NCBI GenBank assembly: GCA_003450815.1
Contig: DMES01000077.1
Coordinates: forward strand, 97,671 to 161,670
Length of the DNA stretch: 64,000 nucleotides
Reading direction: 5' to 3'
From: Elusimicrobiota bacterium
Lineage (GTDB): Bacteria; Elusimicrobiota; Elusimicrobia; Elusimicrobiales; UBA9959
Shown here: piece by piece, positions 1,199-54,690 of the stretch
Layout of the letters: each line of letters opens with the position of its first letter
Numbering within the stretch: the stretch's first letter is position 1
The notes under the pieces: generated by a model
Told to the model about the DNA's origin: nothing
The model's database searches: none
What the model saw: the letters and a program-made list of their open reading frames with translations, nothing else
Position numbers and translations under genes: made by a program

Positions 1199-1278
1199 AG
1201 GGTATAGGGGATAGGGTAGAGGGTTGAGGGAGCAGACATTAAGAACTCCTTAAGCCTAAACCCTGAACCCTATACCCT
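1199..1278. repeat. Intercistronic word-palindrome hairpin (GGGxTAG words) between the dus stop and the mutS start
   Basis: The 5' arm is agggtataggggatagggtagagggttgaggg and the 3' arm is agcctaaaccctgaaccctataccct. The outer ~10 bp are perfectly complementary. The central core read on the minus strand is cttaaggagttcttaatgtctgct. Confidence 0.7.
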
Positions 1279-2259: not shown

Positions 2260-2384
2260 ATGCGAATAACCGGCGAATGAACGGATATGCCAATCAGTGC
2301 GAAGACCGTGCGGATATATCGCTTGGATTTAAAGCAGCATTCGTGTTTATTCGCATAAGCCGTTAATTCGCATAAAATTCGCAT
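2260..2384. repeat. Intercistronic word-palindrome hairpin (GCGAAT words)
   Basis: atgcgaataaccggcgaatgaacgg (2260-2284) is complementary to ccgttaattcgcataaaattcgcat (2360-2384). It fills the gap between the stop of the 2389 gene and the dus start. Confidence 0.6.
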
Positions 2385-3128: not shown

Positions 3129-3220
3129 GTAAGTGATTAAGCGATTGAGTAATTAAGTGATTGAGTTTAAGAATCTCCGACTCTTACTCAATTACTTAAT
3201 CACTTCTTCACTATCTTCAC
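3129..3220. repeat. Intercistronic word-palindrome hairpin (GTGATTAA/GTAATTAA words)
   Basis: The 5' arm is gtaagtgattaagcgattgagtaattaagtgattgag and the 3' arm is actcaattacttaatcacttcttcactatcttcac. The inner 20 nt pair at about 17/20. It uses the same word set as the element at 19494-19595. Confidence 0.7.
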
Positions 3221-5672: not shown

Positions 5673-6284
5673 TTATTTTGCGGAATCGTTCGACTGTGTT
5701 CCAGCGCCTGCAGTGGAAAACCCGGGCTTTAGACCTCTTGTCTTATATATCCGTGCCGCGGCATCATCGTTATTTATGTCCAGCCTTAACGCTGCGTACC
5801 ATTCTCTGAGCGCCGCGGCAGTATCTCCCGCCCCATAAAATTTTACGCCTTCCAGATAATGCTTCCGGGACTTCAACCGGTCGGCTTCAGACACCGCGGT
5901 TGCCCGGCTTATGGCATCAGGATTTGTTATGTCCTGTATCCGGCGCAATCCGGTCACGGCATTCTCATTGCCGGGATAATAGCGCAGCGCAATTCCCCAC
6001 TCCGCGGCGGCCTTTTCATATTCATCGCTGCTTTGAAAAATTTTTAACCCTTCAAGATAATGCTTCTGAGACGCAACGCAGTCGGCTTCAGACACCTCTG
6101 CGCCTTTCACCGGACCACATTCCTTGTTTAATGAAGGTCCCGGCGCAGAAAAACTGACACTGCTTTTCGCGTCTGTCTTATTTATTTTATCTACAGCAGG
6201 TGCAAAGGAAGAAAAGCGATAAGCCGCATAGCCCCCTCCAAGCAGACAAATGCTGATGACGCCCAATACAAGCTTCACCTTCAT
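5673..6284 (-). CDS. Secreted or membrane-anchored protein with two TPR-like repeats
   Basis: MKVKLVLGVISICLLGG is a signal or anchor. There are two copies of KHYLEG.K....D...AA.EW..ALR. The start was chosen at the internal Met (6284) rather than 6359. Confidence 0.5.
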   Translation of the reverse strand: MKVKLVLGVISICLLGGGYAAYRFSSFAPAVDKINKTDAKSSVSFSAPGPSLNKECGPVKGAEVSEADCVASQKHYLEGLKIFQSSDEYEKAAAEWGIALRYYPGNENAVTGLRRIQDITNPDAISRATAVSEADRLKSRKHYLEGVKFYGAGDTAAALREWYAALRLDINNDDAAARIYKTRGLKPGFSTAGAGTQSNDSAK

Positions 6285-6380
6285 ATGTTCAATAGGATAA
6301 TAGATTTTTATTGCGGAACTATTACGGAGGGGAGAAGTAAAATTGCTCCAGCGCTTCAAATCCGGCTTAGAGCTTACTTC

Positions 6381-8330
6381 TTATTCATACCTCAGCGCGT
6401 CTATCGGCGAAAGGAGTGAGGCTTTTTTTGCCGGCCAGAAGCCGAACACAATACCCACCCCGGCCGAAAAGCCGAAGGCCAGGGCCACTGAAAAAGGCGA
6501 GATATAAACCGCCCAGCCGGAAAGTTTTGAAAGTATAAGAGAGCTGGCCGCTCCGGCTATTATGCCCAGCAGGCCGCCCACCACCGATACTATCACCGCC
6601 TCTATCAGGAACTGCAGCAGCACCGCACGGCTTGTGGCGCCAATGGCCTTGCGCAGGCCTATCTCCTTGGTGCGCTCGCTGACGCTTACCAGCATTATGT
6701 TCATTATGCCTATGCCGCCCACTATCAGCGAGATGCCCGCTATCATGCCCAGCAGCGTACTGAAGGTTTTTATGGTGCCGGTCAGCATGGTCTGCATCTC
6801 GGCCATATTCATCAGCATCACATCGTCGGCCTTGTGGGCGGGCACATTGTGCCGCTTGCGCATCAGCTCCTTTATTCTCCCCTGCACCTCCGGCATAAGG
6901 CTGAAATCGGACACTTCCACCCAGACTGAATCAATATAGTTTTTACCCAGCACCACCTTCATGGCGGTCTGCAGCGGCACTATCACCACATCGTCCTGGT
7001 CACGCGGGCCCTGTGCGCCCTTAAGCGGCAGCACGCCTATCACTGTAAAATACTTGCTGTTTATCTTAATGGTCTTTCCCACCGGGTTCTCTCCGGCAAA
7101 CAGCTCCTTCACCACTGTGTTGCCCACAAGCGCCACTTTGGCCAGCCGCGCCCCCTCAGCGTCTGAGAAAAAGCGGCCGTAATAAGGCTGAGAGTTGCGC
7201 ATTGCGGCGTAAACGGCTGTGACCCCAGTGATATTAGTGCGCTGGTTCTTTGCGCCGTAAGCCACCTGGGCGTTGCCGGAAACATTGGAATCGGCCCTGG
7301 TAATGTTCGGCACCTCACTCGCGATGGCCTTGGCGTCATCCAGGGTTAGGCGGCTGACAGCGCCGGCACCGAGGCCCGCGCCGCCCTGGCGGAACATGCC
7401 GGGCATAACGCTCAGCAGATTGGTGCCTAGAGAAGACATCTGCTTCTGTATGGAGCGCTGGGCGCCGGTGCCCACCGCCAGCATGGCTATCAGGGCGCCA
7501 ACGCCTATGATTATGCCCAGCATGGTCAGAAGCGACCTGGTTTTATTGCTTATTATCGAGCTGACCGACGAGGCAAGATTTTCGGACACCTCGCGCCAAC
7601 TGAGAAAAAAGGATCCGGGGATGTGCAGGCGCGCGGCCGCGGCTGTTTTTTTTGCCGTGGCTTTTTTAGACACATCCTCAATTATCTGGCCGTCTTTCAG
7701 TTTTATAACACGGTCTGCCCAGGCGGCGATGTCGGGTTCATGCGTGACTATCACCACCGTAATGCCGCTCTCGTTGAGCTTGCGGAAAATGTGCATTATC
7801 TCGTTAGACTGGTCGGAAGCCAGGTTGCCGGTGGGTTCGTCGGCGAATATTATTTTAGGACTGTTGACCAGAGAGCGGGCTATGGCTACGCGCTGCTGCT
7901 GGCCGCCGGAGAGCTGGTTGGGTTTATGGTCGGCCCGGTTAGCGAGCCCCACCTGTTCCAGGTATTTTGCCGCTTCGTGCGGGCGCGCTTTTTCACCAAG
8001 GTAAATTTGCGGCAGGGCCACATTGGAGGCGGCGCTTATGCGGGGCAGCAGGTTGAACTGCTGGAACACGAAACCGAGTATGCGCGCCCTCAGGTAGGAC
8101 AGTTCCACATCGTTCAGCTCGGAAATTTCACGGCCGAACAGCTTATAGGAGCCGGCGCTGGGCCGATCGAGCAGGCCCAGTATGTGCATCAGCGTGGACT
8201 TGCCGGAGCCGGACGGCCCCATGATGGCGACAAACTCGCCCTCCTTTACCGAAAGATCAACGCCTTTTAAAATCTCAAGCGGCTCACCGCCCATCTGGTA
8301 AACTTTCTTAATGCCTTTAAGTTCGATCAT
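6381..8330 (-). CDS. macB: MacB-type ABC transporter (ATPase fused to FtsX-like permease)
   Basis: GPSGSGKST Walker A, LSGGQQQRVAIARS signature, and a C-terminal four-TM MacB/FtsX permease with a large periplasmic loop. Confidence 0.9.
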   Translation of the reverse strand: MIELKGIKKVYQMGGEPLEILKGVDLSVKEGEFVAIMGPSGSGKSTLMHILGLLDRPSAGSYKLFGREISELNDVELSYLRARILGFVFQQFNLLPRISAASNVALPQIYLGEKARPHEAAKYLEQVGLANRADHKPNQLSGGQQQRVAIARSLVNSPKIIFADEPTGNLASDQSNEIMHIFRKLNESGITVVIVTHEPDIAAWADRVIKLKDGQIIEDVSKKATAKKTAAAARLHIPGSFFLSWREVSENLASSVSSIISNKTRSLLTMLGIIIGVGALIAMLAVGTGAQRSIQKQMSSLGTNLLSVMPGMFRQGGAGLGAGAVSRLTLDDAKAIASEVPNITRADSNVSGNAQVAYGAKNQRTNITGVTAVYAAMRNSQPYYGRFFSDAEGARLAKVALVGNTVVKELFAGENPVGKTIKINSKYFTVIGVLPLKGAQGPRDQDDVVIVPLQTAMKVVLGKNYIDSVWVEVSDFSLMPEVQGRIKELMRKRHNVPAHKADDVMLMNMAEMQTMLTGTIKTFSTLLGMIAGISLIVGGIGIMNIMLVSVSERTKEIGLRKAIGATSRAVLLQFLIEAVIVSVVGGLLGIIAGAASSLILSKLSGWAVYISPFSVALAFGFSAGVGIVFGFWPAKKASLLSPIDALRYE

Positions 8331-8336
8331 AATGAA

Positions 8337-8443
8337 AGGGTATAGGGTAGAGGGTTCCGGGTAGAGGGGAAGGAGTTTCTTGTTTCTGCAATCTCTCCCC
8401 TCACTTGTTTACTCTCTACCCTAACCACTAATCCCTATATCCC
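8337..8443. repeat. Word-palindrome hairpin (GGGTAGAG words) between macA and macB
   Basis: The arms are agggtatagggtagagggttccgggtagagggga and tctcccctcacttgtttactctctaccctaaccactaatccctatatccc. The core aaggagtttcttgtttct (8370-8387) is identical to 11961-11978. Confidence 0.7.
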
Positions 8444-8447
8444 GCTC

Positions 8448-9422
8448 TTAATGCATCGCCCTGCCGGCACCGCGCGGCATGGCGGGACGGCTGGGCATCA
8501 GAGGGTTTTTACCTGAAGAATCTACTTGCGCCGTATAGCCTTTTTTTAAATAAAAGACCGTCTCCCCGGCTTCAAGTCCGGAAACTATCTCCACCTGTTC
8601 GCCCTCATTGCGGCCGGTCTCCACCCTGGCGTAAACAGGCTGGCCGTCTTTCAATTCCTTTATCACCACCGTTTCGCCCTGCTGGTTGGTGGTGACCGCC
8701 ATGGCCGGCAGCAGCAGGATATTTTTGCGCTCCGAGATGGCTATTTTTATATTGGCTGTCATCTGCGAGCGGAAGAACGCCGGCACGCTCTCCGGGCGTA
8801 TTTTTACGGTATAGGTGACCACATTGCTCTTAATGGTTCCCTCATCCAGTATTTTGAAAACCGTGCCGCGTACCCGCTTGTCCGGGTAGGCGTCCAGCAC
8901 TATGGTGGCCCGCTGGCCCGGTTTTACCCTGCCTACATCCGACTCGTCCAGGCTGGCGGCAACCAGCAGTTTGTCGGACAGGGCAAACAGCACGGCGCCG
9001 GAATTCACAGTCTGGCCCTCCACCACATTCCTGAGTATCAGCGTGCCGCTTATCGGTGAAATGATTTTAATGGGCTTGTAGGTTTCTTTCCACTGTTTGT
9101 ACTGGTCGTCGCCGGCGGAGCGCGCCGCGTCCAGTATTGCCACGCGGTCGGAGGAGCTCATCAGCGCCAGCACCTCGCCGGCCTTTATCGCCTCGCCTTC
9201 GTCCACAAGAATCTCTTCTATGCGGCCCGAGGCGGAGGGCTGTATCTCCACACGGTTCTCCGGCGCTATAACGCCTGTGGTATCCACCACTTCTGAAAGG
9301 TCCCTAAGTTCCGCCTGTGCGCTGATATATTTCGGCTTGCCCTTGCCGCTATTTTTTTTAAACGCGTACCAGCCGCCGCCGGCCACCGCCGCAACCAAAA
9401 GGATGATGATGAATTTTTTCAT
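8448..9422 (-). CDS. macA: MacA/HlyD-family periplasmic adaptor
   Basis: N-terminal anchor plus biotinyl-lipoyl-like and beta-barrel segments (e.g. VEIQPSASGRIEEILVDEGEAIKAGEVLA). Located between the tolC-like and macB genes. Confidence 0.85.
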   Translation of the reverse strand: MKKFIIILLVAAVAGGGWYAFKKNSGKGKPKYISAQAELRDLSEVVDTTGVIAPENRVEIQPSASGRIEEILVDEGEAIKAGEVLALMSSSDRVAILDAARSAGDDQYKQWKETYKPIKIISPISGTLILRNVVEGQTVNSGAVLFALSDKLLVAASLDESDVGRVKPGQRATIVLDAYPDKRVRGTVFKILDEGTIKSNVVTYTVKIRPESVPAFFRSQMTANIKIAISERKNILLLPAMAVTTNQQGETVVIKELKDGQPVYARVETGRNEGEQVEIVSGLEAGETVFYLKKGYTAQVDSSGKNPLMPSRPAMPRGAGRAMH

Positions 9423-9427
9423 ATTAT

Positions 9428-10711
9428 TTATTCCTCTACACCCACACCCAGCATCTGCTCCAGCGCCAGTTTGCGGCTGTGTGCCGCGCGGGCGTAGTTA
9501 AGCTGGTTCAAATCCGAATCCACAAAGTTCTGTTCCACATTCTCCAGATCAATAAAGCTTATCTTACCAGCCATATATTTTATCTGGGCTTCCTTGAAGC
9601 GCTCCTCGTTGGCCCGCAGCAGGGAAACGCTGGCCAGCGCCGTTTCGGCGGCGCTCAGGTAATCGTCGTAACCGGAGCGCAGCGAAGCGGCGAGCGCTAT
9701 CCTCTCGGCCTTAAAATTCTCCTCCGCGGCGGCCAGAGATTTTTTGGCGGCCGACAGCGTATTAAAATAATAAGTAGGCCCGCCGGAAAAAATAGGGATG
9801 TTAAGGCTAAGCCCCAGCGACCATCTCCCGTCCTGCGGGAATTCACTGGCCCCGCTCCAGCCATAGGACTGGCTGGCCCGGAGAGTGGGCATTGCGTAAT
9901 AGCGGGCGGAGCTGGTTCTTTCGTTTGCCGACTCAAGGCTCTTCCTGGCCGACACGATGCGGGGAGATCTCTCCAGCGCACGGTTCACACGCGCCTCGTC
10001 CATGGCGAAGGCGGGCACGCTTAAATCTCCGCTCGCCTTTACCGGCGTCTTTCCCTCCAGGCCTATAGCCTCAAGAAGGGCGCGCTGCGCCGTGACCAGC
10101 TGGCGCTCAGCTTTTTTAACGGAAACGCCGGAGTTTTCGGCCAGAGCCTCAGTGTATAACGCGTTGCCATTGGACTCCATGCCGCTTTCATACTTAAGCC
10201 TTATGAGCCTGGCGTTTTCCCGCCTTATGCCGAAAATTTTCTTCTGCACCTCTATTCCTTTCTGGGCAAAGAGCAAATCCGCGAAAGCGCCGGCCAGTGT
10301 CTGCCTGGCCGAAGCTGAAGCTATCATATAATCGGCCTCAGCCTTTTCCTTGGCTATACGGCTGGTTTTAACACCGGACACCGTCCTCAGGTTAAACAGG
10401 TCCTCTGAAGCCGAGACGGAGGCGCTCCAGCCGGTGGAAGGAGAAGAATTATCCCCGCCGCTCCTGGACACCGAATGCGACACGCCAACCTGCGGCATAT
10501 AGGAATTGAGCCCGGCCAGGTAATTGTATCCGGCCTGTTCCATTGAGGCGCGCGCGGCCTTAACAGAGGGGTTATGCTCTACAGCCAGACGCCTTGCCTC
10601 ATCCCAGCTAAGGTTAAGCTGCTGCGCGGCCGCGCGGCCGGATAACAGTAAAACCAAGGGCAATATTAGGAGTTTTTTGTTAGTGGTCATAGGTTTGTCA
10701 AGAAACCGCAT
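9428..10711 (-). CDS. TolC-family outer-membrane efflux protein
   Basis: 427 aa with a signal peptide and two long repeated coiled alpha/beta OEP repeats. First gene of the efflux operon. Confidence 0.8.
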   Translation of the reverse strand: MRFLDKPMTTNKKLLILPLVLLLSGRAAAQQLNLSWDEARRLAVEHNPSVKAARASMEQAGYNYLAGLNSYMPQVGVSHSVSRSGGDNSSPSTGWSASVSASEDLFNLRTVSGVKTSRIAKEKAEADYMIASASARQTLAGAFADLLFAQKGIEVQKKIFGIRRENARLIRLKYESGMESNGNALYTEALAENSGVSVKKAERQLVTAQRALLEAIGLEGKTPVKASGDLSVPAFAMDEARVNRALERSPRIVSARKSLESANERTSSARYYAMPTLRASQSYGWSGASEFPQDGRWSLGLSLNIPIFSGGPTYYFNTLSAAKKSLAAAEENFKAERIALAASLRSGYDDYLSAAETALASVSLLRANEERFKEAQIKYMAGKISFIDLENVEQNFVDSDLNQLNYARAAHSRKLALEQMLGVGVEE

Positions 10712-10749
10712 TCAACAGTATAACGCACCAATGCCCGGTTTTATTGCAT

Positions 10750-11907
10750 TTATTTTAATTTTTCCTGGCTGGAAAAGTTGCGTTCCAGGGTAAAGCCCGC
10801 CAATATTTCCCTGTCGTCAGCGGACGGCTTGCCGGCTATATGGGCGGCGATGGTTTCGCCAAGGCCCGGCCCCAGCATAAAGCCCTGGCCGCACATCCCC
10901 ACCGCCAGCACATAGCCCTTGAGAGCCCCGGGGAAATCAACTATGGGGAACCCGTCCGGAGTCATGGGGTACAGTCCGCGCCAGGTGCGGCGCACCTTGA
11001 TGTTTGCCAGGTCCGGCATAAGCGCGGTCATGCGTTTTGAAACCTCAGGGAGGAATTGAGATGTTGAACGCCTGTCACGGCCCCATATGGGCGGCTGGGG
11101 GGTAAGGCAGAACACTATCTGTCCCTCCGAATTCTGGTAGAAATAATAATTCTTGGACTTGTCGCCGGGCCGTATATCCACCACCATCGGCTCAAAAAAC
11201 CTCTCCATAGGTTCGGTTATCCCGGCTTCGTGGCAGTCAGGGTTTACAGGAACCTTTACGCCGGCCATAGCCGACACCTCCGCCGCATCCGCTCCCGCGG
11301 CGTTTACCACCCAGGACGCATTGTAACGACCCAGTGAGGTAACGACCCCTTTTACCACGCCCGCTTCCGAGCATATTTCCGTCACAGGCTCCATAAAATG
11401 GAACTCGGCCCCCAAACCCAGCGCTCTCCTGTAAAACGCGTTTATAGCCAGCAGGGGTGAGGCTGAGCCGTCGTCCGGCGCGTAGGTGCCGCCGCGCAAT
11501 TCCTTTTGGGTGATTCCAGGTATCAGGCCGCGCATTTTATCCGCATCCAGCCAGTCTATATTCAGGCCGAAACCGCGCTGCACCTTAAGCAGTTCCTTAA
11601 GCACTTCCTCGTCCTGCTCCGTGTAAACCGGGAAAGCGTAACCGCCTTTTAGCCAGCCTATATCCTCGCCGCACTTTTCCCTCCAGGTGGAAAAAATATC
11701 AAGGCTGCGCAGGCAGGCTTTTATTTTTGCGCCGTCGGAATGCGTGGCGCGCACGCCGCCTATGGCGCATTTGTTCTGGCCCTGTCCGACAGAGGGCATG
11801 GTTTCAAGAACCAGCGTTCTCAGGTTGCGCCCTGCGAGCGCCATGGCAAGCGGTACGCCGACAGATCCGGCGCCTATGACAATGACATCGTAAGTTTTAA
11901 CGGACAT
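10750..11907 (-). CDS. FAD-dependent oxidoreductase (DAO / sarcosine oxidase beta-like)
   Basis: YDVIVIGAGSVGVPLAMALAG is a dinucleotide-binding fold, and the overall layout is DAO-family. Confidence 0.8.
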   Translation of the reverse strand: MSVKTYDVIVIGAGSVGVPLAMALAGRNLRTLVLETMPSVGQGQNKCAIGGVRATHSDGAKIKACLRSLDIFSTWREKCGEDIGWLKGGYAFPVYTEQDEEVLKELLKVQRGFGLNIDWLDADKMRGLIPGITQKELRGGTYAPDDGSASPLLAINAFYRRALGLGAEFHFMEPVTEICSEAGVVKGVVTSLGRYNASWVVNAAGADAAEVSAMAGVKVPVNPDCHEAGITEPMERFFEPMVVDIRPGDKSKNYYFYQNSEGQIVFCLTPQPPIWGRDRRSTSQFLPEVSKRMTALMPDLANIKVRRTWRGLYPMTPDGFPIVDFPGALKGYVLAVGMCGQGFMLGPGLGETIAAHIAGKPSADDREILAGFTLERNFSSQEKLK

Positions 11908-11927
11908 ATGATCTCCAGTAACTGCAG

Positions 11928-12012
11928 GGAATAGGGGATAGCGAATAGGGGCTAGGGGTTAAGGAGTTTCTTGTTTCTTCACCCTATACGCTCTTCGCTA
12001 TCCCCTATACCC
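11928..12012. repeat. Word-palindrome hairpin (GGGxTAG / CGAATAG words)
   Basis: ataggggatagcgaa in the 5' arm pairs perfectly (15 nt) with ttcgctatcccctat in the 3' arm. The core is aaggagtttcttgtttct at 11961-11978. Confidence 0.75.
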
Positions 12013-12017
12013 TGCTG

Positions 12018-14201
12018 TTAAAACCCGCTCCAGGAGGCCTTTTCCTCTTCTTCCGTGCGGCATGTGATGTTTGAAAAAGCTCCAAGCGGCACTTCCATAA
12101 ACAGCGGCCTCTGGCTTAAAGCCGTGACTTCCTTAAGGTCCACGCCCTCACTTTTATAAATGCCGGCAATAAGCGAGGCGCAGGTTTTCGCCCCGCAGGC
12201 TCCCATACCGGCGCGGGTAACGGCTTTAAGCTGGTTCAAATCCCTTACACCCGCGCGTATCGCCTTCCGTATCTCGCCGAGCGAAATCCGTTCACATCGG
12301 CAGATAATGGCCGAATCCGGCATAGCAGAAAAACCGCCGCCGGTCTTTTCCGGTTTCTGCGGCTCGTAAAGCTTCAGGCCCGCGGCTCTGTCAGCAACAG
12401 CTGAGGTCGTTTTCGCTATCACTATCAGCGTGTTCTCTGCCTTAAAATCTTTCACATCCGTCACCTGTGCCTTCTCAAGCCCTGCTCCTTCGTAGTCTGT
12501 AAGGGTTACTGTATCGCCTTTTTTCACAAGGCCCCGGCCTATTTCAAAAGGAAGCGCTACCGTCGGGTGTTTCGGGTCCTTGCGCTTGTCAACAATGGTA
12601 ACGGCAAGCCCCGGGCAGATAAGCAGGCATTTGTAGCATCCAATGCAGTCCCCCTCAAATTTTGGGACGGCCATCATGTTGCTTTTAGGTATTTTTATGG
12701 ATTTTTTAGGGCAGACCGTGGCGCACGGGTCGCAGGGAATTTCCTGGCGGCAGTGAAGCACGGGATACACCGCTTTATCATGCTCTCTTACGGCGCTTTC
12801 ATGTGTTTTGCCCGGCCGCGATTTCAGGGTTTGCAGGCGTTCAAACCAGAAGTCAGGCACCGGCCCCGTCATCACACCCAGGCTCTTAAGCACCTTGTGA
12901 GCGGTTATCCTGCCGCTGAACATCGCGGCCGACGCCTCGGCTATTTCTTCGGCGTCACCGCACACGAAAGCGTTCATGCCGAAAGCTACGGCCTGGCCGT
13001 GGAATTCGCTCACGGAATTTAAGCCCACCGCCACCAACAGCGTGTCCGCCGCGAATGTTTTTTCCGTGCCTTCAAGAGGCTTGAAATTTTTATCCACCTG
13101 CGCCACCGTGACAGTTTCCAATCCGGTTGTTCCGCCGGCTCTTACCACGGTGTGGCTGGTATAAACAGGCACGCCCAGCCGCTTGATTTTATCCAGATGT
13201 ACCTTATAGCCGCCGCAATGGTCCATGGCTTCTATAAGGCCGGCCACCTTTATACCGGCCTGGAGGGCGTGATACGCGGCTATAAGCCCCACATTCCCGC
13301 CGCCGACTATGAACAGATTTTTTGAGGGCCGCACCAAATCACGGTTCACCAAAGTCTGGAATGCCCCGGCGCCGTAAACGCCCGGCAGGGTATTGCCCTC
13401 AAAAGCGAGTGTTTTCTCCCTTGCGCCAGTTGCGCTTATAAAAGCCTTGGGTTTTACAAGATAATAGCCGCCGTTATAAACCACACCAACGCGCCTGTCT
13501 GAAAAAACGGCGACGCAGGCAGCGTTCACCCACACCTTTACAGATGGGTACGCCTTAAGCTGGTCCTCAAGCTTATCGGCGATATCTATGCCTCTCGTGC
13601 CCGCGAAACAATCCTCTACCGACCCGAAAAATTTATGCGTCTGCAGCACAAGCTTGCCGCCAAGCTTATGCTTGTCGTCTATTATAAGCGTGCTGACATC
13701 AAGTTTCCCAAGCTCTGCGGCGGCGGCAAGTCCCGCTGGGCCACCTCCCACAATAAGCGCATCCACTTCAATTTCTTCCACCCTTCCCAACTCCTGCGCG
13801 CAGGTCTCGCCCTTTTGGCCTGGAAAGCGCGGTGCGCCATTTTTCTCCGCACCTCCCGCGCCGGCGTCCTGCTCCGACATGGCGGGCCCTGTCGCGCTCG
13901 GCATTTTGGGCAGGCCGTTAAGGCGGGCCACGGTCATTCCTTCTCTGACCTTTGTCACGCAAGCCTTTACCGGCAGACCGTCGGCTACCACCGCGCATTG
14001 GGCGCACTGGCCGTTGGCGCAGAAAATGCCCTGCGGGCTGCCGTCTTTTTTATGATAGCTGAAAATCTTGATCCCTGAGGCGAACAAAGCGGAGGAGATG
14101 ACCTCATCCCCAAGGGCCTCCAGGGACTTCCCTTCAAAAGTAAAACGGAGTTTCTTTTTTTCTTCCGGCTCAAGCACAGGATGGTCTGTTATTCTTTCCA
14201 T
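12018..14201 (-). CDS. Multidomain iron-sulfur flavoprotein: 2Fe-2S domain, FAD/NAD(P) oxidoreductase, 4Fe-4S dicluster and BFD-like domain
   Basis: CANGQCAQCAV (SoxA/HcnA-like 2Fe-2S), VGGGPAGLAAA and VGGGNVGL Rossmann motifs, CIGCYKCLLICP ferredoxin, and a CRCERISLGEI BFD-like domain. The start was moved to MERITDHP (14201) because the 59-aa extension overlaps the divergent gene. Confidence 0.75.
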   Translation of the reverse strand: MERITDHPVLEPEEKKKLRFTFEGKSLEALGDEVISSALFASGIKIFSYHKKDGSPQGIFCANGQCAQCAVVADGLPVKACVTKVREGMTVARLNGLPKMPSATGPAMSEQDAGAGGAEKNGAPRFPGQKGETCAQELGRVEEIEVDALIVGGGPAGLAAAAELGKLDVSTLIIDDKHKLGGKLVLQTHKFFGSVEDCFAGTRGIDIADKLEDQLKAYPSVKVWVNAACVAVFSDRRVGVVYNGGYYLVKPKAFISATGAREKTLAFEGNTLPGVYGAGAFQTLVNRDLVRPSKNLFIVGGGNVGLIAAYHALQAGIKVAGLIEAMDHCGGYKVHLDKIKRLGVPVYTSHTVVRAGGTTGLETVTVAQVDKNFKPLEGTEKTFAADTLLVAVGLNSVSEFHGQAVAFGMNAFVCGDAEEIAEASAAMFSGRITAHKVLKSLGVMTGPVPDFWFERLQTLKSRPGKTHESAVREHDKAVYPVLHCRQEIPCDPCATVCPKKSIKIPKSNMMAVPKFEGDCIGCYKCLLICPGLAVTIVDKRKDPKHPTVALPFEIGRGLVKKGDTVTLTDYEGAGLEKAQVTDVKDFKAENTLIVIAKTTSAVADRAAGLKLYEPQKPEKTGGGFSAMPDSAIICRCERISLGEIRKAIRAGVRDLNQLKAVTRAGMGACGAKTCASLIAGIYKSEGVDLKEVTALSQRPLFMEVPLGAFSNITCRTEEEEKASWSGF

Positions 14202-14264
14202 AAAATCGCCTCTTGTAACGGCAAAATCTCGTTTTATTTCAATATAGTATAATAAAAAACCGAT

Positions 14265-16919
14265 ATGGCGACCAATAAACTGCGGGACATGTTTAAACGC
14301 GTTGTCGCGAACCGGGCGTTCATTTTTTTGCCGGCCGCGGCGGCTATTGCGCTGGCGCTTTGGCAGTTGAGCCGCCAAACATTCTACTCAATTCAAAACC
14401 TTTCCGCTTACGCGGATCGCGGAGAGCTTATACTGCATGGCGTAAGCGACAAGGCTTTAAGTTACAGTATGCCTTTTTTCAGCCTGCTGAACGCCTTAGC
14501 CCTTTATCACTGGCAGGGCACCTTAACACCCGTTATCTTTTTTGCGGGTTTTCTGGTCTATCTGCTTTGTTATTCCATAGGCGCCGCAAACGGCGGGCCG
14601 CTGCGTGGTTTAATTTTCGCTTTTTCCGCCATATTTCTGGGTTTTACGATTAAACTCCCGGAAAGCGAACAGCTTCTCTACACGCTGGCCCTGCTTTTAT
14701 ACACAAATGCCGCCGTTCTTAAACTACAAAAGAACACGGCCCCGATCGCAATAGCGGCCGGGTTGGCGCTTGGCGTATCCCTGCTCATCCGCTCGCCAAT
14801 GCTTCTTTTCCCGCTGCCTGCTATTTTATATGAACGCTTCTGGGGGAAGCATCTGCGTTTGCGGCGCTACGCCCTTAACACCTCACTTTTTTTACTCTCT
14901 TCCTACATACTGCTGATCCCCTGGATCCGTGTCAATTACTCTCTTTTCGACCGTTTTATTCCCTTTGAAGAGGCGCGCGGCGACTGCAACCTGATAACGG
15001 GGGCCAAGGGAACCGTGTTTACAATGGAAGGCGACTGCAGGGCCTTCGGCGGCCTTTCAAGGACAGAGCCGGTTTACTCCTGGGCCTTAAAAACAGTGGC
15101 GGCCTCGCCTTTTAACTATATGGAAGCCGTAGCTAAAAGAATGTGGCAGGTAGCTCTGATGTTCCCCCTGCTTTTGGCGGCCGCCATTATCGCTCTTTTT
15201 TTATCGCGCCGGAGAGAGACGCGCTTTCTCGCTGTGTTGGCAGGCTATTTTGTAGTTATCCATTGTCTATTGTCCATTGAGGAGAGATACTTCTATCCTC
15301 TGCGCTACCTTCTGACGCTTATTACGGCCGCCGGAATATTTGACTTTCTGAAAACCTTATGGTCGGGAGCGGAAAGAAAAAACGGCGGGATATTTATCTT
15401 CAGCGGCGTTTTCGCCATTTTGATTCTTTTTTCGTTCTGGACCGTTTATAAAACCCTTTTATGGCCGGCCCGGGCCGCGGAACCTGTCATCGCTGTCACA
15501 CGCGGGCTTACAAATAACCCCTCCGACGCCTGGCTGTTCAAAAAGAAAGGGGAAATTCTACTGTCATTCAACAGCACTGAAATAGGCATTGCCGCCCTTA
15601 CGCGCTACGCCGGACTTTCTAAGAATCCCTGCCTGGAAACAATTTACATACTTGATACCCTGGCCTCAAAAAAGCCGCCGGCACCCGACGGGTTTGAAAA
15701 CATCTACGACCTCACCATCGTAAAAACCCTGCGCGAACTTGAGCTGAACGACATGAAAGCCGCGGCGGCCTCTTTTGCCCTTGCGCAGGGGATGTGGGAA
15801 AAAGAAAAAAACTCCCTTAAGGGGCTGTCTTACGAAAAAGACCGACGGCTGGCCGCCAGCATACGCCCCTCCAATAACAGCTTTTGGGATTATGACCTTT
15901 ATGCCGCCTTTTACTATTTCCCGCTTAAGCGGCGCGAGGCAATATTGACCCGGATGTCCTCTCTTACGACTCTTACGCCTAAACTTAAATATTTAATGCT
16001 GGAATCCGCGCTGGAAAACGGCAAAAAAGCCTCGGTTACAGACGCGCTTAACCGGCTTTCATCCAAACTGGAAAAAGAACTGCCGCCCTCGGAATTTAAC
16101 TATGGCCGCCAAGCCGGCGCTCTGCTGGAGGCTTTGCTTAAACCTGCTGGCGGATGCTCCACAAAAAACCTGTCTGAACTTTCCGGTTTAGCGGCTAAAG
16201 CGGTTGAAATATCTATAACAAAGAACGGCGTTCAAGATACTATCAACCGTTTCAGTCCCGGGTCCGGAGAAACTGGCTGGCAAAAAATTTCTCTCTTGTA
16301 TTCGGCTTATGAAGCCAAAAATGCGAAGCAGAGCTTTGCCGCCCAGGCCGAAGCTCTTGCCGCCGCAGAGCCGGACAATCTTGTTTTATTCTATTTATCG
16401 GCCTGCCGCGTCGCCGCGCAGACCGGGGGGCGGCCGCTGCCGGACCTGGGCAAAAGAATTTATCCGCTGGCGACGGCCGCTTCAGTTTTGCTTGCAAACA
16501 GCCAAAAAGCCGCGGCTCTCAAGCTCTTGCGGACAGCGGCTAACTCCGGCACGTTTGATGCTGACGGCCTGGAAGCCGCGGCCATAACCGCGCAGGAGGC
16601 GGAGGATTATCCGCTCGCTCTTGAGCTGATCAATAAAGGCCTGGCAGGGAAGCCTGTTTCGCCGGCGCTTTATAATGACCGCGGAGTTATCCTGCGTTTT
16701 AGCGGAAAAAACCTTGAAGCGATAGCTGATTTTAAAAAAGCCGTGGCTCTTGACGGACGATGCTTTTCAGCCGCGTTAAACCTGGCCTCAAGCCTTGAAC
16801 TTGCGCACGACAAACAGGCGGCGCTGAAAATCTATTCCGGTCTCGCCCTCGACGGCTCAATGCCGCGGGATGTACGGCAGACCGCGGCGCAAGCCGCCGC
16901 ACGCCTTGAAAAACGCTAA
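14265..16919 (+). CDS. Polytopic membrane protein with a C-terminal TPR-repeat domain (possible ArnT/PMT-like glycosyltransferase)
   Basis: The N-terminal ~400 aa hold about 10 hydrophobic helices. The C-terminal half is helical and Ala/Leu-rich, ending in recognisable TPRs (YNDRGVILRFSGKNLEAIADFKKAVALD). The enzymatic assignment is inference only. Confidence 0.55.
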   Translation: MATNKLRDMFKRVVANRAFIFLPAAAAIALALWQLSRQTFYSIQNLSAYADRGELILHGVSDKALSYSMPFFSLLNALALYHWQGTLTPVIFFAGFLVYLLCYSIGAANGGPLRGLIFAFSAIFLGFTIKLPESEQLLYTLALLLYTNAAVLKLQKNTAPIAIAAGLALGVSLLIRSPMLLFPLPAILYERFWGKHLRLRRYALNTSLFLLSSYILLIPWIRVNYSLFDRFIPFEEARGDCNLITGAKGTVFTMEGDCRAFGGLSRTEPVYSWALKTVAASPFNYMEAVAKRMWQVALMFPLLLAAAIIALFLSRRRETRFLAVLAGYFVVIHCLLSIEERYFYPLRYLLTLITAAGIFDFLKTLWSGAERKNGGIFIFSGVFAILILFSFWTVYKTLLWPARAAEPVIAVTRGLTNNPSDAWLFKKKGEILLSFNSTEIGIAALTRYAGLSKNPCLETIYILDTLASKKPPAPDGFENIYDLTIVKTLRELELNDMKAAAASFALAQGMWEKEKNSLKGLSYEKDRRLAASIRPSNNSFWDYDLYAAFYYFPLKRREAILTRMSSLTTLTPKLKYLMLESALENGKKASVTDALNRLSSKLEKELPPSEFNYGRQAGALLEALLKPAGGCSTKNLSELSGLAAKAVEISITKNGVQDTINRFSPGSGETGWQKISLLYSAYEAKNAKQSFAAQAEALAAAEPDNLVLFYLSACRVAAQTGGRPLPDLGKRIYPLATAASVLLANSQKAAALKLLRTAANSGTFDADGLEAAAITAQEAEDYPLALELINKGLAGKPVSPALYNDRGVILRFSGKNLEAIADFKKAVALDGRCFSAALNLASSLELAHDKQAALKIYSGLALDGSMPRDVRQTAAQAAARLEKR

Positions 16920-16981
16920 GATCCAAAGCCTGTGGTGAAATTTAGTACAATATAAGGAAGTCTAATACTAGGAGCGCTAAA

Positions 16982-17524
16982 ATGAAAAAAATATTTTTAA
17001 GTTCTGCTGTAGCGGTTCTTTCGTGCGGCTTTCTTGCCGCTGAAACCATTAACTTCAGCGACGCGGATTTTTCAAAAAGCCTTAATACGGTGGCCGTGAC
17101 TGCGGCACAGAATGTTAAAGCCGATATCTCTCCGGCGATAAAACCGGCCGTGGCTAGAACCGGCCAGTATGTGCAGGTTTCCGGCTATGTCAACCTCAAC
17201 GGCAACGGCTGGATGCCGTCCAACGGCGGCTATACCAGCGTCAATCTCACCGGTTGGGGCTCATTCCAGGATTCCACCGGCAAAGTCACCTCCAACCAGG
17301 CATACATCACGGAGTCGGCCTCAATGTGGCTATACCCCAATCAGTATGCCTACCAAACCGTGTATCCCAATGTCTATGTCCAGTTTTATAAGGACGGAAA
17401 ACCCGTGGGCTCCACTTATCTGCGCGGCAGCATCAGCGTAAGCGGCTGGCCGAGCAGCAGCTTTGTTTCTCTCAGCGGCAGCGGCTACCTGAGCGGCTCT
17501 ATTTATGTGGAGGACGCTCAGTAG
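16982..17524 (+). CDS. Secreted hypothetical protein
   Basis: Signal peptide MKKIFLSSAVAVLSCGFLAA with an upstream aggag RBS. The composition is beta-rich (Y/S/G/N). Confidence 0.5.
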   Translation: MKKIFLSSAVAVLSCGFLAAETINFSDADFSKSLNTVAVTAAQNVKADISPAIKPAVARTGQYVQVSGYVNLNGNGWMPSNGGYTSVNLTGWGSFQDSTGKVTSNQAYITESASMWLYPNQYAYQTVYPNVYVQFYKDGKPVGSTYLRGSISVSGWPSSSFVSLSGSGYLSGSIYVEDAQ

Positions 17525-17565
17525 CTTTTCGCCGAGGCGAAAGCTGTTTTAAGTCACGAAAAAAA

Positions 17566-17600
17566 GGGCGGCGGCTTTGAACGCCAGCCCTTTTTGTTTT
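17566..17600 (+). terminator. Rho-independent terminator candidate
   Basis: A stem gggcggcg / cgccAgccc (one bulge) is followed by tttttgtttt and preceded by an A-run. Confidence 0.55.
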
Positions 17601-17611
17601 AAGATATATCC

Positions 17612-18520
17612 ATGCGCATACTTGAGGGAAAAAGCCTTTCGGCCGAAATACTGGGCTCGCTGATACCGCGTGTAAAAGCGGTGAAAGCCGGGCTTGGACG
17701 CCCGCCGTCGCTTGCCATAATAAATTATTTTGGGGATTCTCCCTCCGCGGTTTATGTAAAACGCAAGATCGCCGCCTGTGAAGCGCTCGGCATAGAGGTA
17801 AAACTTTTCAACCCCGCGGCCGCCGACGGCTACACCGCCTTTAAAAACCTGCTGTCCCGCCTGGGCGCGGATGCCGCCTGCGACGCCATCATGCTTGAGC
17901 GCCCGCTGCCGGACGGCTTTGAGACCCTTGAAACCTGGGACGCTCTCCCCGCCGCCAAGGATGTGGACGGTTTGTCCTCACTCAATATGGGCAGGCTCTT
18001 TATCTCTACAAAATTCCCGGAAATAGCCGCCGGCGGCTTTTTCGCGCCTTGCACGGCATTGGCGGTAATACGCCTGATGAAGTTTCATGGCATAGATCCC
18101 GCCGGGAAAATTATAGCCGTGGCCGGCCGTTCGGCGATAGTCGGAAAGCCGCTCGCGCAGATGCTGACCATGCTTAACGCCACCGTTACGCTTTGCCACA
18201 CAAAAACGCCGGACCTGCCGGGGATTTTCAAACGAAGCGATGTCGTGATAAGCGCGGCGGGCAAGCCCCGCTGGATAAAAAAAGAAATGCTTCAAGCGAG
18301 CGCGGCTGTAATAGATGTGGGCACAAATTTCGACGAGACCGGAAAAATGTGCGGCGACGCGGATTTTGAGGATATAAAAGGCTCCATTTACGCCGCCACG
18401 CCCGTCCCGGGCGGGGTGGGCCCTGTAACGCTGGCCTGCCTGCTTGAGGCCTCGGTCGCGGCCGCGGAAACACGGGCCCGTTCTACATCGGGCGGATTGT
18501 CCTCAGCAGAGAAAAAATAA
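17612..18520 (+). CDS. folD: Bifunctional methylenetetrahydrofolate dehydrogenase/cyclohydrolase
   Basis: ILEGKSLSAEI..., VGDSPSAVYVKRK-like, GRSAIVGKPLAQML and PVPGGVGPVT motifs. Confidence 0.9.
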   Translation: MRILEGKSLSAEILGSLIPRVKAVKAGLGRPPSLAIINYFGDSPSAVYVKRKIAACEALGIEVKLFNPAAADGYTAFKNLLSRLGADAACDAIMLERPLPDGFETLETWDALPAAKDVDGLSSLNMGRLFISTKFPEIAAGGFFAPCTALAVIRLMKFHGIDPAGKIIAVAGRSAIVGKPLAQMLTMLNATVTLCHTKTPDLPGIFKRSDVVISAAGKPRWIKKEMLQASAAVIDVGTNFDETGKMCGDADFEDIKGSIYAATPVPGGVGPVTLACLLEASVAAAETRARSTSGGLSSAEKK

Positions 18521-19024: not shown

Positions 19025-19497
19025 TGGCGGACCTGCTGGTAAAACTCTACTCCCTGCCGGAAAGCGGCGGGGTTTGTGCCGCCCTTAAAGAAAAAGGTGT
19101 TGAAATAAAACGCGCCATCGGCCCTGAAAAATCGGCGGTGGTCGGCTGGGTGCTGGCCAATTTTTCAAAAGCCTGGGCAAGCGAGGCGGATGTGGCATTC
19201 TCGCAAAATCCTCCCGGCCTTTTTATTGCGGTGAAAGACGGCGGCATTCTCGGGTTTGCCTGTTATGATGCCACCGCCAAAGGCTTTTTCGGGCCGATAG
19301 GCGTGGCGGAAACAGCGCGAACAGGCGGGCTTGGCACCGGACTTCTCCTGCGGACGCTTGAAGCCATGCGCGAAGCCGGCTACGGCTATGCGATCGTGGG
19401 CTGGGCGGGGCCGGTGGATTTCTTTGAAAAGACCGTAGGCGCGGTGGTTATTGCGGGCTCGGAACCCGGGGTTTATAAGAATATGGTAAAAGGGTGA
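19024..19497 (+). CDS. GNAT-family N-acetyltransferase
   Basis: GPIGVAETARTGGLGTGLLLRTLEAMREAGYGYAIV matches the acetyl-CoA binding motif A (R/Q-x-x-G-x-G/A). Confidence 0.65.
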   Translation: MADLLVKLYSLPESGGVCAALKEKGVEIKRAIGPEKSAVVGWVLANFSKAWASEADVAFSQNPPGLFIAVKDGGILGFACYDATAKGFFGPIGVAETARTGGLGTGLLLRTLEAMREAGYGYAIVGWAGPVDFFEKTVGAVVIAGSEPGVYKNMVKG

Positions 19498-19595
19498 TTA
19501 AGTAATTAAGTGATTGAGTAAAGAGTTATTACGCTGGGGGAGAGAATATCTAACAAAAACCTTAATCACTAAATCACTTAATTACTTAATCACTC
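19494..19595. repeat. Word-palindrome hairpin (GTGATTAA/GTAATTAA words)
   Basis: The arms are gtgattaagtaattaagtgattgag and cttaatcactaaatcacttaattacttaatcactc. The core starts taaagagttatt (19519). It overlaps the GNAT stop codon and ends 7 nt before the next ATG. Confidence 0.7.
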
Positions 19596-23818: not shown

Positions 23819-23900
23819 AGGTCAATAATACAAAAAAGTGAAGCAGGGGTTTGTCGAGGGTTTAAGACTAACAACGGTGTAAACCTTAAGCCTTGTGCCT

Positions 23901-24926
23901 TCAGCCTTCAGCCAGTTCAAACATTTTTTCTATGGCTTTTTTAGCCCTGGCAGCTATTTCGGGGGGGACTGTTACTAATTGTTCTTTTGAAGGTTTTTTA
24001 AGCGTCTGCAGGATATTTTCAAGCGTAACGGCTTTCATGTACGGGCACAGCCGGCACATGGCGATAAAGTTTTTATCGGGAAACTTTATGCGCGCCAGTT
24101 CCCCAAAACCGCATTCCGTAACCAGCAGATAGGCGGCGGCGTTAGTGTTCTCCACATAGCGCATCATGTCGCCGGTGCCGCCCATATAATCCACCGCGTT
24201 TATTATATCCGAGGGACATTCCGCGTGAGCAAGAACGGCTACGCCCGGGTAATTCTTCCGGTAAAGCGCTATTGTACGCGCATCAAAATGCTCATGAACT
24301 ACGCAGGAACCGTTCCATAAAATTATGTCCTCGCCGGGCGTTTTGCCCAGAACTTTAGCCAGATTTGCGCCCATAAACCTGTCGGGGATGAAAATCACCT
24401 TTTTGTTCTTTTCGTAGATACGGCGAAGTATCTTTTCCGCGTTGGCGCTGGTCACAATGCAGTCGGACTCCGCTTTCACCTCGGCTGAAGTGTTTATATA
24501 GGTCACTACCGACGCGCCGGGATGCGCGGCTTTTAGCCCGCGCACATCTTCGGCTGTCACGCTTTCACTGAGCGAGCAGCCGGCGTCAAGAGAAGGAATG
24601 TACACTTTCTTTGCGGGGTTTAAAACGGCCGCCGTTTCAGCCATGAACCGCACTCCGCAGAAAACAATAATATCCGCCGCCGTATGCCGCGAATCGTCGG
24701 CCAGCTTGTAAGAATCACCCACAAAGTCGCCTATACCAAGGATTATCTCCGGCGTCTGGTAAACATGCGCGCAGATAACGGCATTTTTTTCTTTTTTAAG
24801 CCTGTTTATCTCTTCCGTCAGCGCCGCTATTTGGTCCAGCCGTCCCTCCACGCACCGATGGTGGAGCCCCAGCGCCATCAGCCTTTTGGATTCTTCCTTA
24901 ATCTCGCTTTCATTGATACAAGACAT
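23901..24926 (-). CDS. nadA: Quinolinate synthase
   Basis: ICAHVYQTPEI, FCGVRFMAETA, VVTYINTSAEVKA and AHAECP motifs. Confidence 0.9.
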   Translation of the reverse strand: MSCINESEIKEESKRLMALGLHHRCVEGRLDQIAALTEEINRLKKEKNAVICAHVYQTPEIILGIGDFVGDSYKLADDSRHTAADIIVFCGVRFMAETAAVLNPAKKVYIPSLDAGCSLSESVTAEDVRGLKAAHPGASVVTYINTSAEVKAESDCIVTSANAEKILRRIYEKNKKVIFIPDRFMGANLAKVLGKTPGEDIILWNGSCVVHEHFDARTIALYRKNYPGVAVLAHAECPSDIINAVDYMGGTGDMMRYVENTNAAAYLLVTECGFGELARIKFPDKNFIAMCRLCPYMKAVTLENILQTLKKPSKEQLVTVPPEIAARAKKAIEKMFELAEG

Positions 24927-24978
24927 AAAAATTCAGGAACACCTTCCCTAACCCCTATTCCCTATTCGCTATTCGCTG
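24927..24978. repeat. Half copy of the GGGxTAG word element (no partner arm)
   Basis: The minus strand reads gcgaatagcgaatagggaataggggttagggaaggtgttcctgaattttt and then the nadA ATG. The words overlap the last 5 codons of the upstream phosphodiesterase gene. Confidence 0.45.
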
Positions 24979-26874: not shown

Positions 26875-27065
26875 AAGACCTCCTGGCTTAAAGCAGGCAT
26901 CGGTAAAGGTATAGATAAAGGAACTGTCACTTCTCACTTGACGCTGAATTATGCTTAGCCCCTACCTTAACCTCTACCTTTCCCTTTGTCTCTGCCTGCT
27001 GTTACTAATTATAGCAAGTCTGCCTCAAGCACCGCTAAAACCAAAATATTTGTACAATATCGGAT

Positions 27066-49340: not shown

Positions 49341-49414
49341 AGCTGAAGCGCTGAAGTCCTGAAGCTCTGAAGTAAAGAGCTTCTCTAAACCTTCAGCTCT
49401 TCAGCGCTTCAGCA
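49341..49414. repeat. Word-palindrome hairpin (CTGAAGnn words) between gyrB and gyrA
   Basis: The arms are agctgaagcgctgaagtcctgaagctctgaag and cttcagctcttcagcgcttcagc. The core is taaagagcttctctaaac (49373-49390). Confidence 0.75.
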
Positions 49415-54504: not shown

Positions 54505-54690
54505 ATTGCTATAAGCCATAAGCCCAAGTCGTCATTCCGGCGCAAGCCGGAATCCAGGAATATCGACGACACTGGACCCCGGCTTGCGCCGGGGTGACAG
54601 CAAGAGTTTCACCAACGATGAAAAATGCTTCTACGAGACCTCCGCCTTACGTTTTGGACTATGGCTTAAGGCATACGACATATGCCAGAA
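54505..54690. repeat. Composite word-palindrome element (ATAAGCC words) with nested GC hairpins between nifU and nifS
   Basis: The outer arms are ctataagccataagcccaagtc and ttggactatggcttaaggcat. The inner 27-nt units at 54531-54557 and 54572-54598 are reverse complements of each other. The core-like caagagtttcacc lies at 54601. Confidence 0.6.

Follow-up and report, generated by a model that had tools for sequence, protein, structure and literature searches.

Tandem-word palindromes in intergenic spacers of an Elusimicrobiales genome and their relation to the heptamer repeats of other bacteria

Palindromes between the genes of the window

The stretch analysed here (the window) comprises 64,000 nt from a metagenome-assembled genome (MAG) of the Elusimicrobiales. 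Its GyrA is 100% identical to an Elusimicrobia MAG protein, and the remaining close homologues all belong to Elusimicrobia or Elusimicrobiales. At positions 11928-12012, between a Fer2_4/Pyr_redox_2 gene and a DAO gene which as a pair resemble the alpha and beta subunits of sarcosine oxidase, lies a palindrome composed of short repeated words. It reads GGAATAGGGGATAGCGAATAGGGGCTAGGGGTT-AAGGAGTTTCTTGTTTCT-TCACCCTATACGCTCTTCGCTATCCCCTATACCC, in which the heptamer words left of the centre return as inverted complements on the other side. Nine full copies of such word palindromes, 75-190 bases long, and two half copies were found in the window, every one intergenic, a full copy being built of tandem 7-8 nt words, a short centre and the same words inverted. 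For comparison, syntenic loci from 8 relatives were included. The copies of the window are as follows (I-numbers are entries of the inverted-repeat scan).

11928..12012, focal palindrome in the gap that separates the Fer2_4/Pyr_redox_2 stop (12018) from the DAO start (11907), the two genes being on the minus strand; arms of GGGxATA/GCGAATA heptamers at 11919-11963 and 11977-12020, apical core at 11961-11978; entry I1 with 39-nt arms, 85%; einverted-style score 83; covariance model 96.6 bits
8337..8443, palindrome between macA and macB; GGGTAGA-type heptamers, 18-nt core at 8370-8387 identical to that of the focal copy; entry I4
1199..1278, palindrome between dus and mutS; GGGTATAG heptamers, core variant TTAAGGAGTTCTTAATGTCT on the minus strand, dus stop TAG within the first word; entry I3
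3129..3220, palindrome between the genes of a 146-aa and a 245-aa protein; GTGATTAA/GTAATTGA octamers, upstream TGA within an outer word; entry I9
19494..19595, palindrome between the GNAT and methyltransferase genes; GTGATTAA octamers, GNAT TGA within the first word; entry I2, 96%
49341..49414, palindrome between gyrB and gyrA; CTGAAGnn octamers with the hexamers paired and the nn spacers unpaired, apex GTAAAGAGCTTCTCT; entry I7
2260..2384, looser palindrome in the spacer of the 245-aa gene and dus; words of the GCGAAT type at an irregular spacing of ~11-12 nt, centre of 36-75 nt; entry I10, score 53
54505..54690, composite element in the nifU/nifS spacer; a GC-rich hairpin (54531-54598) is nested within outer arms of ATAAGCC/GGCTTAT; entries I5 and I12
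26892..27000, added degenerate member in a divergent spacer; GGTAAAGG/CCTTTCC words; entry I8
24927..24978, minus strand, half copy; one purine-rich arm GCGAATA GCGAATA GGGAATA GGGGTTA, core-like GGTGTTCCTGAATTTTT, then the nadA ATG; the GDPD stop TAG lies within the third word; 24 nt match L043 17003 at 96% (L-numbers denote loci of other genomes)
23884..23913, minus strand, second half copy; GGCTGAA heptamer array starting on the nadA stop codon (TGA in the word)

Eight of the sites and one half copy had been listed by a first-pass annotation made from the letters alone, and all of them are present at the positions given. Its gene labels proved right for dus|mutS, macA|macB, gyrB|gyrA, GNAT|methyltransferase and nifU|nifS (the 54505 site), while the genes at the focal site are actually Fer2_4/Pyr_redox_2|DAO. 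Tandem Repeats Finder (TRF) detected arrays with a period of 7 or 8 in 2.9-4.7 copies on the arms of the palindromes at 1199, 3129, 8337, 11928, 19494 and 49341; at 8337-8443 the array was found on the 5' side alone, at the other five sites on both sides. Autocorrelation of the arms amounted to 0.5-0.9, and the listed sites are among the 12 longest inverted repeats of the window, with a complementarity of 71-96%.

The number of these palindromes clearly exceeds chance. Einverted-style dynamic programming (score >=53) identified 11 hairpins in the window against 0-1 in each of five block shuffles. Eight of the 11 correspond to the earlier-listed sites. The remaining three are non-periodic hits in coding sequence (2430-2574 and 53011-53151) and a perfect or near-perfect 24-bp hairpin (23/24) at 22752-22804, which has a 5-nt loop, stands between convergent genes, resembles an ordinary bidirectional terminator and lies outside the family. 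Hairpins with both arms periodic numbered 17 in 203 kb of Elusimicrobia DNA and 3 in 232 kb of unrelated control loci, a biased set chosen because its members contain the core; two of these 3 are AT-rich low-complexity sequence, and the third is a genuine word palindrome in a Rikenellaceae locus (L003). Spurious inverted junctions can arise in MAG assemblies, but Logan assemblies made independently from two sequencing runs contain the identical window sequence, which indicates that it is no assembly artefact, and homologous elements are present in several other MAGs. Together with the strong excess over shuffles and control genomes, by which chance can be counted as already refuted, the probability that the palindromes are chance structures or assembly artefacts is practically negligible.

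According to rough gene calls, eight of 42 junctions between co-oriented genes carry an element, and these represent most of the spacers of 80-140 nt; a few copies occur in divergent or convergent spacers (26892, L033 and L038 12501). An element starts 0-12 nt past the upstream stop codon or overlaps it, and ends 6-25 nt short of the next start, in agreement with the earlier observation that the elements fill the stop-to-start gaps of co-oriented genes. In 6 of the 11 window copies the stop codon itself forms part of the first word or of the palindrome base, namely TAG of dus, GDPD and gyrB and TGA of GNAT, the 146-aa gene and nadA. The predicted fold places the upstream stop codon in the stem base and leaves the downstream start unpaired. 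The stems are imperfect, with arms of ~18-64 nt; predicted energies range from -33 to -59 kcal/mol in simple copies, and the nested nifU|nifS copy reaches about -80 to -90 kcal/mol. As gene callers extend or mis-start open reading frames (ORFs) over the elements, these should be masked or annotated.

Of 18 periodic hairpins, 14 have a leading (5') arm rich in purines, on either strand. Stop codons are also more numerous in leading than in trailing (3') arms (77 vs 44), and 9 of 26 leading arms close all three frames vs 2 of 26 trailing ones, which is a trend and no rule; the purine-richness is the stronger regularity of the two. A stop-rich leading arm fits elements that sit on gene ends without extending the ORFs. 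No word hairpin was present among the 43 terminator-like sites predicted in positions 1-20000; no U-tract follows the stems, whose tails read for example CCCTAAAATT and CCCTTTCATT. A search of Rfam 15 gave no match at gathering score, and at E<=1 the sole match was a chance hit of a miRNA model to the terminator hairpin (22743-22809).

Word families, turnover and the apical core

The elements are dispersed paralogous families, several word families existing side by side at unrelated loci and in different genomes, and the earlier view of one architecture with differing words was found to recur in the window and in its relatives. All-against-all comparison assigned the copies at 1199, 8337, 11928 and 24927, together with one at L033 and two L043 sites, to the GGGxTAG type. 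The GTGATTAA-type copies at 3129 and 19494 are paralogues, sharing an exact 19-mer at 3148 and 19501 and 24 nt matched at 96% (3127 vs 19490). The CTGAAG type is common to the gyrB/gyrA site and the mutS|C11 junction of L043, and the GCCATAAG type to nifU|nifS of L041 and dus|mutS of L043. Between non-orthologous loci, 44 nt at window 8331 match L033 at 88.6%, and 33 nt at window 11915 match the 254aa|dus junction of L043 at 91%.

The exact 18-mer AAGGAGTTTCTTGTTTCT occurs at 8370-8387 and 11961-11978, where 0.06 occurrences would be expected even with up to 3 mismatches. Searched against 185,579 species genomes (596 Gb, a collection that excludes the window's own genome), it gave 34 matches, about the chance number, and the sole true element among them is that of L033, another Elusimicrobia MAG, which carries the full architecture GGGTATAGGGTTCAGGGTTCAGGG-core-CCCCTCTACCCTAGCCCCTCTACCC beside an unrelated gene. 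The 642-aa neighbour at L033 was considered as a macB orthologue and rejected, since BLASTP finds no relation. A covariance model built from seven core-bearing copies retrieved other word families only weakly, the best being L043 16125, L040 18555 and L003 at E ~1e-4 to 1e-5; window 49336 scored E 0.24 and window 19487 E 2.1. The Rikenellaceae contig L003 (MAG JBCQVD010000059) bears word palindromes at 413-497 and 930-1021, with GTTTAGC and GTTAAGC heptamers. This Bacteroidota contig was fetched as a chance match to the 18-mer; the architecture is therefore not limited to Elusimicrobia. In the relatives of 59-66% GC (L044-L047) no word palindromes were found.

Within the Elusimicrobia clade of 49-55% GC, elements are gained, lost or replaced at orthologous sites. 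At Fer2_4|DAO a homologous element is found in the window and L043 (77% identical, words shuffled), and a 10-15 nt spacer in L044, L045 and L047. The macA|macB and GNAT|methyltransferase sites are occupied in the window alone, the latter being empty in L043. The 245aa|dus junction carries a GCGAAT-type element in the window and a GGGATTAG-type in L043, and is a 4-nt gene overlap in L044 and L045; dus|mutS has the GGGTATAG type in the window vs the GCCATAAG type in L043. At gyrB|gyrA, CTGAAGnn octamers are present in the window and L041, nnnGATT heptamers in L040, and degenerate 10-mers in L038 with an apex GTAAGAAGCTTCTT homologous to GTAAAGAGCTTCTCT of the window; the site is empty in L048 (28 nt; GyrA 93%) and L046 (18 nt; GyrA 88%), and the gap measures 136 nt in P0002, the closest third relative at this site. 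At nifU|nifS the ATAAGCC type in the window is replaced by the GCCATAAG type in L041 and the GTAGGC type in L038, and L040 has none. In the convergent spacer between gyrA and the ACT-domain gene, L048 contains a single AACTCTn array (5971-6022) abutting the stop of the ACT gene and L038 a full palindrome of related words (12501-12596). The single array may be a stage preceding the inverted pair.

The centre of the palindromes had been described as conserved. This is correct for the 18-mer, which is exact at two sites, and for the enrichment of AGGAGTT across families, but the core is solid in only about one third of the copies. In an unbiased k-mer count AGGAGTT/AACTCCT ranked top: 8 of the 26 apexes contain it, and none of 300 shuffles gave more than 5. 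The underlying motif, AAGGAGTT(T)CTT, is non-palindromic and occurs across word families, namely with GGGxTAG, AGTGnnC, GCCATAAG and GTAGGC arms. It always directly follows the purine-rich arm and has a T-rich continuation, the variants being AAGGAGTTTCTTGTTTCT, AAGGAGTTTCTTATATTTCT, AAGGAGTTCTTTATATTTCT, AAGGAGTTCTTAATGTCT and AAGGAGTTCCTT; the remaining copies have a faint relative, GTAAAGAG[T/C]T, or no core. On the sense strand the core reads AAGGAG in three cases and CTCCTT in five. It resembles the local ribosome-binding region: the empty gyrB|gyrA spacer of L048 is GGAACGGAGTTCTTGAA-ATG, and the nadA start codon comes right after the purine-rich arm and core-like segment of the 24927 half copy. 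The core may be a relic of a ribosome-binding site, the innermost degenerate word pair or a small self-mobile module. Two other possibilities were tried and rejected. An ATG in the core at 1199 is out of frame as a mutS start (47 nt), and pairing of an anti-Shine-Dalgarno loop with the downstream Shine-Dalgarno sequence fits Fer2_4|DAO and is not general, macB having no such sequence.

Several other features of the window were noted. The gyrB gene (45555-49340) carries an intein, with the insert at ~46904-48206, Pfam Intein_splicing at residues 459-884 and a weak HNH endonuclease match; the GyrB proteins of relatives measure 817-821 aa, and the nucleotide alignment skips 1.3 kb at this insert. 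The region 42000-46000, with the cluster dnaA-dnaN-dciA-gyrB-gyrA, a drop in GC to 43-44% and the minimum of cumulative GC skew, is likely the replication origin region. After the ACT-domain gene, a 46-nt unit is repeated 2.6 times (52484-52601, 94% matches); it is partly conserved in L038 (13091-13216) and unrelated to the word palindromes. Tandem repeats of 12 nt are located within ORFs, ACCCCCCAGAAA x3.9 at 58861-58907 in a Schlafen/AlbA_2-HATPase_c_4 gene and GAAACACAGACA x2.8 at 60023-60055 at the 5' end of a Wzz gene. Downstream of nifS, adjacent NTase_sub_bind (HEPN-like) and NTP_transf_2 nucleotidyltransferase genes (56199-57562) look like a toxin-antitoxin-type pair.

Arm pairing and competing explanations

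Pairing of the arms was evaluated on an alignment of seven copies from six loci and four genomes, with a consensus stem of 22 pairs and 500 shuffles. Paired cells amounted to 90.8% vs 81.9% in shuffles, with slid controls at 45-59%. Double-sided changes were observed at seven stem pairs vs 3.3 in shuffles, and the covariation score was 0.286 vs 0.113; none of the 500 shuffles reached any of the three observed values. The earlier statement that both arms change together is therefore well founded. One copy, L040 22095-22185, has the canonical core and aligns column by column with the GGG family, but all AGGG are turned into AGTG and all CCCT into CACT, so that the words of both arms have without exception changed in concert. 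The stems are 83% complementary in register and retain 63-64% when one arm is shifted by a word, so that they are 'slippery', with a position-specific component in addition.

In 23 copies of known transcriptional orientation, 144 mismatched stem positions comprise 25 G:U on the sense strand, 24 G:U on the antisense strand and 95 others, a split that equals the random 1:1:4 ratio. Fold energies of sense and antisense strands showed no consistent difference. The mismatch ratio, the mixed orientation of the core and the turnover at orthologous sites together argue for a palindrome that arises and is maintained as DNA.

The explanation we favour, and consider somewhat probable, is that the elements are STRR-like (short tandemly repeated repetitive), lineage-specific simple-sequence palindromes, a dispersed repeat class of DNA which is transcribed as non-terminating intercistronic hairpins. 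An array of 7-8 nt words is set on or right behind a stop codon, with an inverted array a few tens of bases downstream, and the centre between the two often holds the Shine-Dalgarno-like module. Replication slippage could enlarge and homogenise the arrays, and intramolecular template switching (quasipalindrome correction) or inverted duplication could keep the arms matched. Slippage for tandem repeats and template switching or inverted duplication for quasipalindromes are established mutational routes. Copies might reach new stop-codon-proximal sites through some copy mechanism and would persist only at harmless places, between a stop codon and the ribosome-binding site that follows, the many stops of the leading arm permitting overlap of gene ends. 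Most elements lie within operons and are hence transcribed, folding into imperfect stems; their most likely effect would be that of non-terminating stem-loops between cistrons, which might block 3'-exonucleases or undergo double-strand-specific processing and so uncouple the genes on either side.

Alternatively, the palindromes could be cis-regulatory RNA hairpins in operon mRNA, selected for translational coupling, stability or processing, with an apical AAGGAG loop binding the 30S subunit or a CsrA-like protein and the arm covariation representing compensatory evolution. Such selection for RNA structure was implied by the first-pass annotation. The significant covariation and the enriched apex motif agree with it, as do a stem that reaches exactly from the stop codon to just before an unpaired start codon, a gyrB|gyrA copy conserved at 91% vs 69% at four-fold sites, downstream genes (macB, mutS, methyltransferase and dus) without a Shine-Dalgarno sequence of their own near the ATG, and a like proposal for cyanobacterial STRR hairpins (PMC2670836). 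A selected RNA should, however, prefer G:U pairs on its sense strand, and the ratio found is random; the core is anti-Shine-Dalgarno-like in more cases than not and is missing or faint in most copies; copies also occupy divergent and convergent spacers; one site holds different word families; and relatives whose GyrA is 86-93% or DAO 75-79% identical manage with 10-28 nt spacers or overlapping genes. The earlier implication is not borne out by these results, and we regard this explanation as rather unlikely. [quoted passage not shown] Comparison of filled and empty orthologous sites nevertheless showed no target-site duplication. Conservation is lowest in the supposed terminal repeats, i.e. 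the element ends, and highest in the internal 18-20 nt, the opposite of a transposon; the arms are simple-sequence arrays of period 7, 8 or 10; one-armed half copies stand beside stop codons (24927, 23884 and L048 5971-6022); and no transposase was seen among the window proteins scanned, an incomplete set of about 20. A mobile element of this type is accordingly quite unlikely.

A G-quadruplex or i-motif element with an incidental hairpin, as proposed for the GGGNATC repeats of Xanthomonas and Nostoc, would suit the leading arm of the GGGxTAG family, which has 4-5 G3 tracts with 4-nt loops, and its words GGGAATA and GGGGATA, which are one base off GGGAATC/GGGGATT and are similarly placed behind stop codons (PMC4692102). 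Most families (CTGAAGnn, GTGATTAA, GCGAAT, GCCATAAG, AGAATAG and GGTTCAnn) have the same architecture without G tracts, and the L040 copy swapped every GGG for GTG and kept the palindrome, which makes this explanation very unlikely. A more speculative proposal, in our opinion decidedly unlikely, is a dedicated process that writes or renews tandem-word hairpins behind stop codons around the oriented module AAGGAGTT(T)CTT..TTTCT, the candidates being a hairpin-targeting ssDNA transposase or recombinase, or a templated (reverse-transcriptase-like) repeat-adding activity. If true, it would account for the persistence of the module in different families and genomes whose arms have been entirely rewritten (AGGG to AGTG in every word), for different words at one gene junction in sister lineages, and for similar elements in Bacteroidota, Xanthomonas and cyanobacteria.

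Several points weigh against the favoured explanation of STRR-like palindromes maintained at the DNA level. Dispersal is left without a mechanism, as the roughly 20 window proteins scanned include no mobilising enzyme and neither a target-site duplication nor a donor site came to light. The power of the wobble test is modest, with 144 mismatches and families that are not independent samples. Comparison of the window with L041 gives 91% identity for the gyrB|gyrA copy and only 69-71% for four-fold degenerate sites of the flanking genes, which suggests purifying selection or recent conversion at this site. An apical motif that stays the same in different word families, the arms meanwhile turning over, would not be expected of junk and is atypical of a transposon.

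Comparison with known repeats

Heptamer arrays capable of forming hairpins have been known since 1990 from cyanobacteria, where Mazel et al. are said to have described the STRR heptamers, and since 2015 from Xanthomonas; their origin and function are still unsettled. The Elusimicrobia clade is informative in this respect, with many families in one genome, orthologous sites that are filled, empty or differently filled, a shared apex and a concerted word change. It makes two questions testable, namely whether the palindromes are kept up by mutation or by selection on RNA, and how arrays are seeded on stop codons. The earlier conclusion that no named repeat family is involved holds as far as Rfam is concerned, but precedents exist in the cyanobacterial STRR and in the inverted pairs of Xanthomonas.

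In E. coli, the mRNA hairpins of repetitive extragenic palindromic (REP) sequences can stabilise upstream cistrons. REP and the related BIME and REPIN elements, associated with REP-associated tyrosine transposases (RAYTs) (PMC3116915; see also PMC3733652), are likewise short, dispersed, extragenic imperfect palindromes, often among co-transcribed genes. They have one conserved palindrome of 20-40 nt with a GTAG/CGTC head, whereas the Elusimicrobia elements are arrays of tandem words with variable arms. No constant head tetranucleotide was found across families, and neither a Y1 transposase nor a RAYT among the 20 window proteins scanned. Integron attC sites do not fit either: reading the elements showed no R''/R' end motifs (RYYYAAC...GTTRRRY), and the neighbours are housekeeping genes in syntenic order such as gyrB/gyrA, dus/mutS and nifU/nifS; a genome-wide search for intI was not made. 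The direct TAACTGA heptamers of Beggiatoaceae, cyanobacteria and some Bacteroidetes, which provide stops in all three frames (MacGregor 2015, PMC4679880), resemble the elements as intergenic arrays, some over the stop of the upstream ORF, and in standing directly before the next start codon. Unlike the palindromes, these arrays are direct and of a single word, with one inverted case and no apical module. The SDR elements of Nostoc reportedly consist, after Elhai et al. in 2008, of a conserved ~20-nt module in many unrelated intergenic contexts, including tandem heptamer repeats, and would on that account be alike in carrying such a module in varied surroundings. SDR5 inserts precisely inside HIP1 (PMC4390886).

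The closest counterparts are the heptamer repeats. In filamentous cyanobacteria, STRR are 7-bp tandem repeats capable of hairpin formation between co-transcribed genes, e.g. hupS/hupL, and in nif clusters; the function of the hairpins is not settled, transcript stability or translational coupling having been proposed, and the title of Jackman & Mulligan 1995, as cited there, speaks of 'highly variable but structured intergenic regions' (PMC2670836). The Elusimicrobia elements share with them the tandem heptamers in spacers of co-transcribed genes, the hairpin potential, the presence of several heptamers per genome, and a sequence that differs among close relatives while the hairpin potential stays. 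They differ in phylum and words, and also in having 8- and 10-nt words and an oriented apical motif across families. No identity to STRR1-3 was found on reading the sequences. Compared with STRR1-3, GGGAATC and GGGGATT, the repeat units are different (GGGTATA/GGGGATA/GGGAATA, CTGAAGnn, GTGATTAA, GCGAAT and GCCATAAG), the nearest being 1 mismatch from GGGAATC. Three properties of STRR and heptamer inverted pairs were all found in the elements: head-to-tail arrays of 7-8 nt units, an intergenic position close behind the stop, and convergent pairing with a second array.

Xanthomonas and Nostoc contain GGGAATC and GGGGA(C/T)T heptamers, respectively, and in Xanthomonas each genome has 70-75 'inverted repeat pairs' of convergent arrays (Rehm et al. 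2015, PMC4692102). The G-rich array of Xanthomonas is situated on the coding strand 0-50 bp away from the stop codon, and its length and sequence vary among close relatives (PMC4692102). Here too the repeats are intergenic, mostly between co-oriented genes, with a C-rich array just before the next ORF and with both single arrays and inverted pairs, and the Elusimicrobia words GGGAATA/GGGGATA are one base from these heptamers. In contrast to Xanthomonas with essentially one word, Elusimicrobia have at least 8 word families, most of them not capable of forming G-quadruplexes; a conserved centre is not reported for the Xanthomonas repeats, and their positions are conserved (83% shared, Xcc vs Xac) where turnover in Elusimicrobia is high. 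The Elusimicrobia elements are thus of the same kind as the heptamer repeats of cyanobacteria and Xanthomonas, and are distinct in their many coexisting families (periods 7, 8 and 10), shared apical motif, high turnover and phylum.

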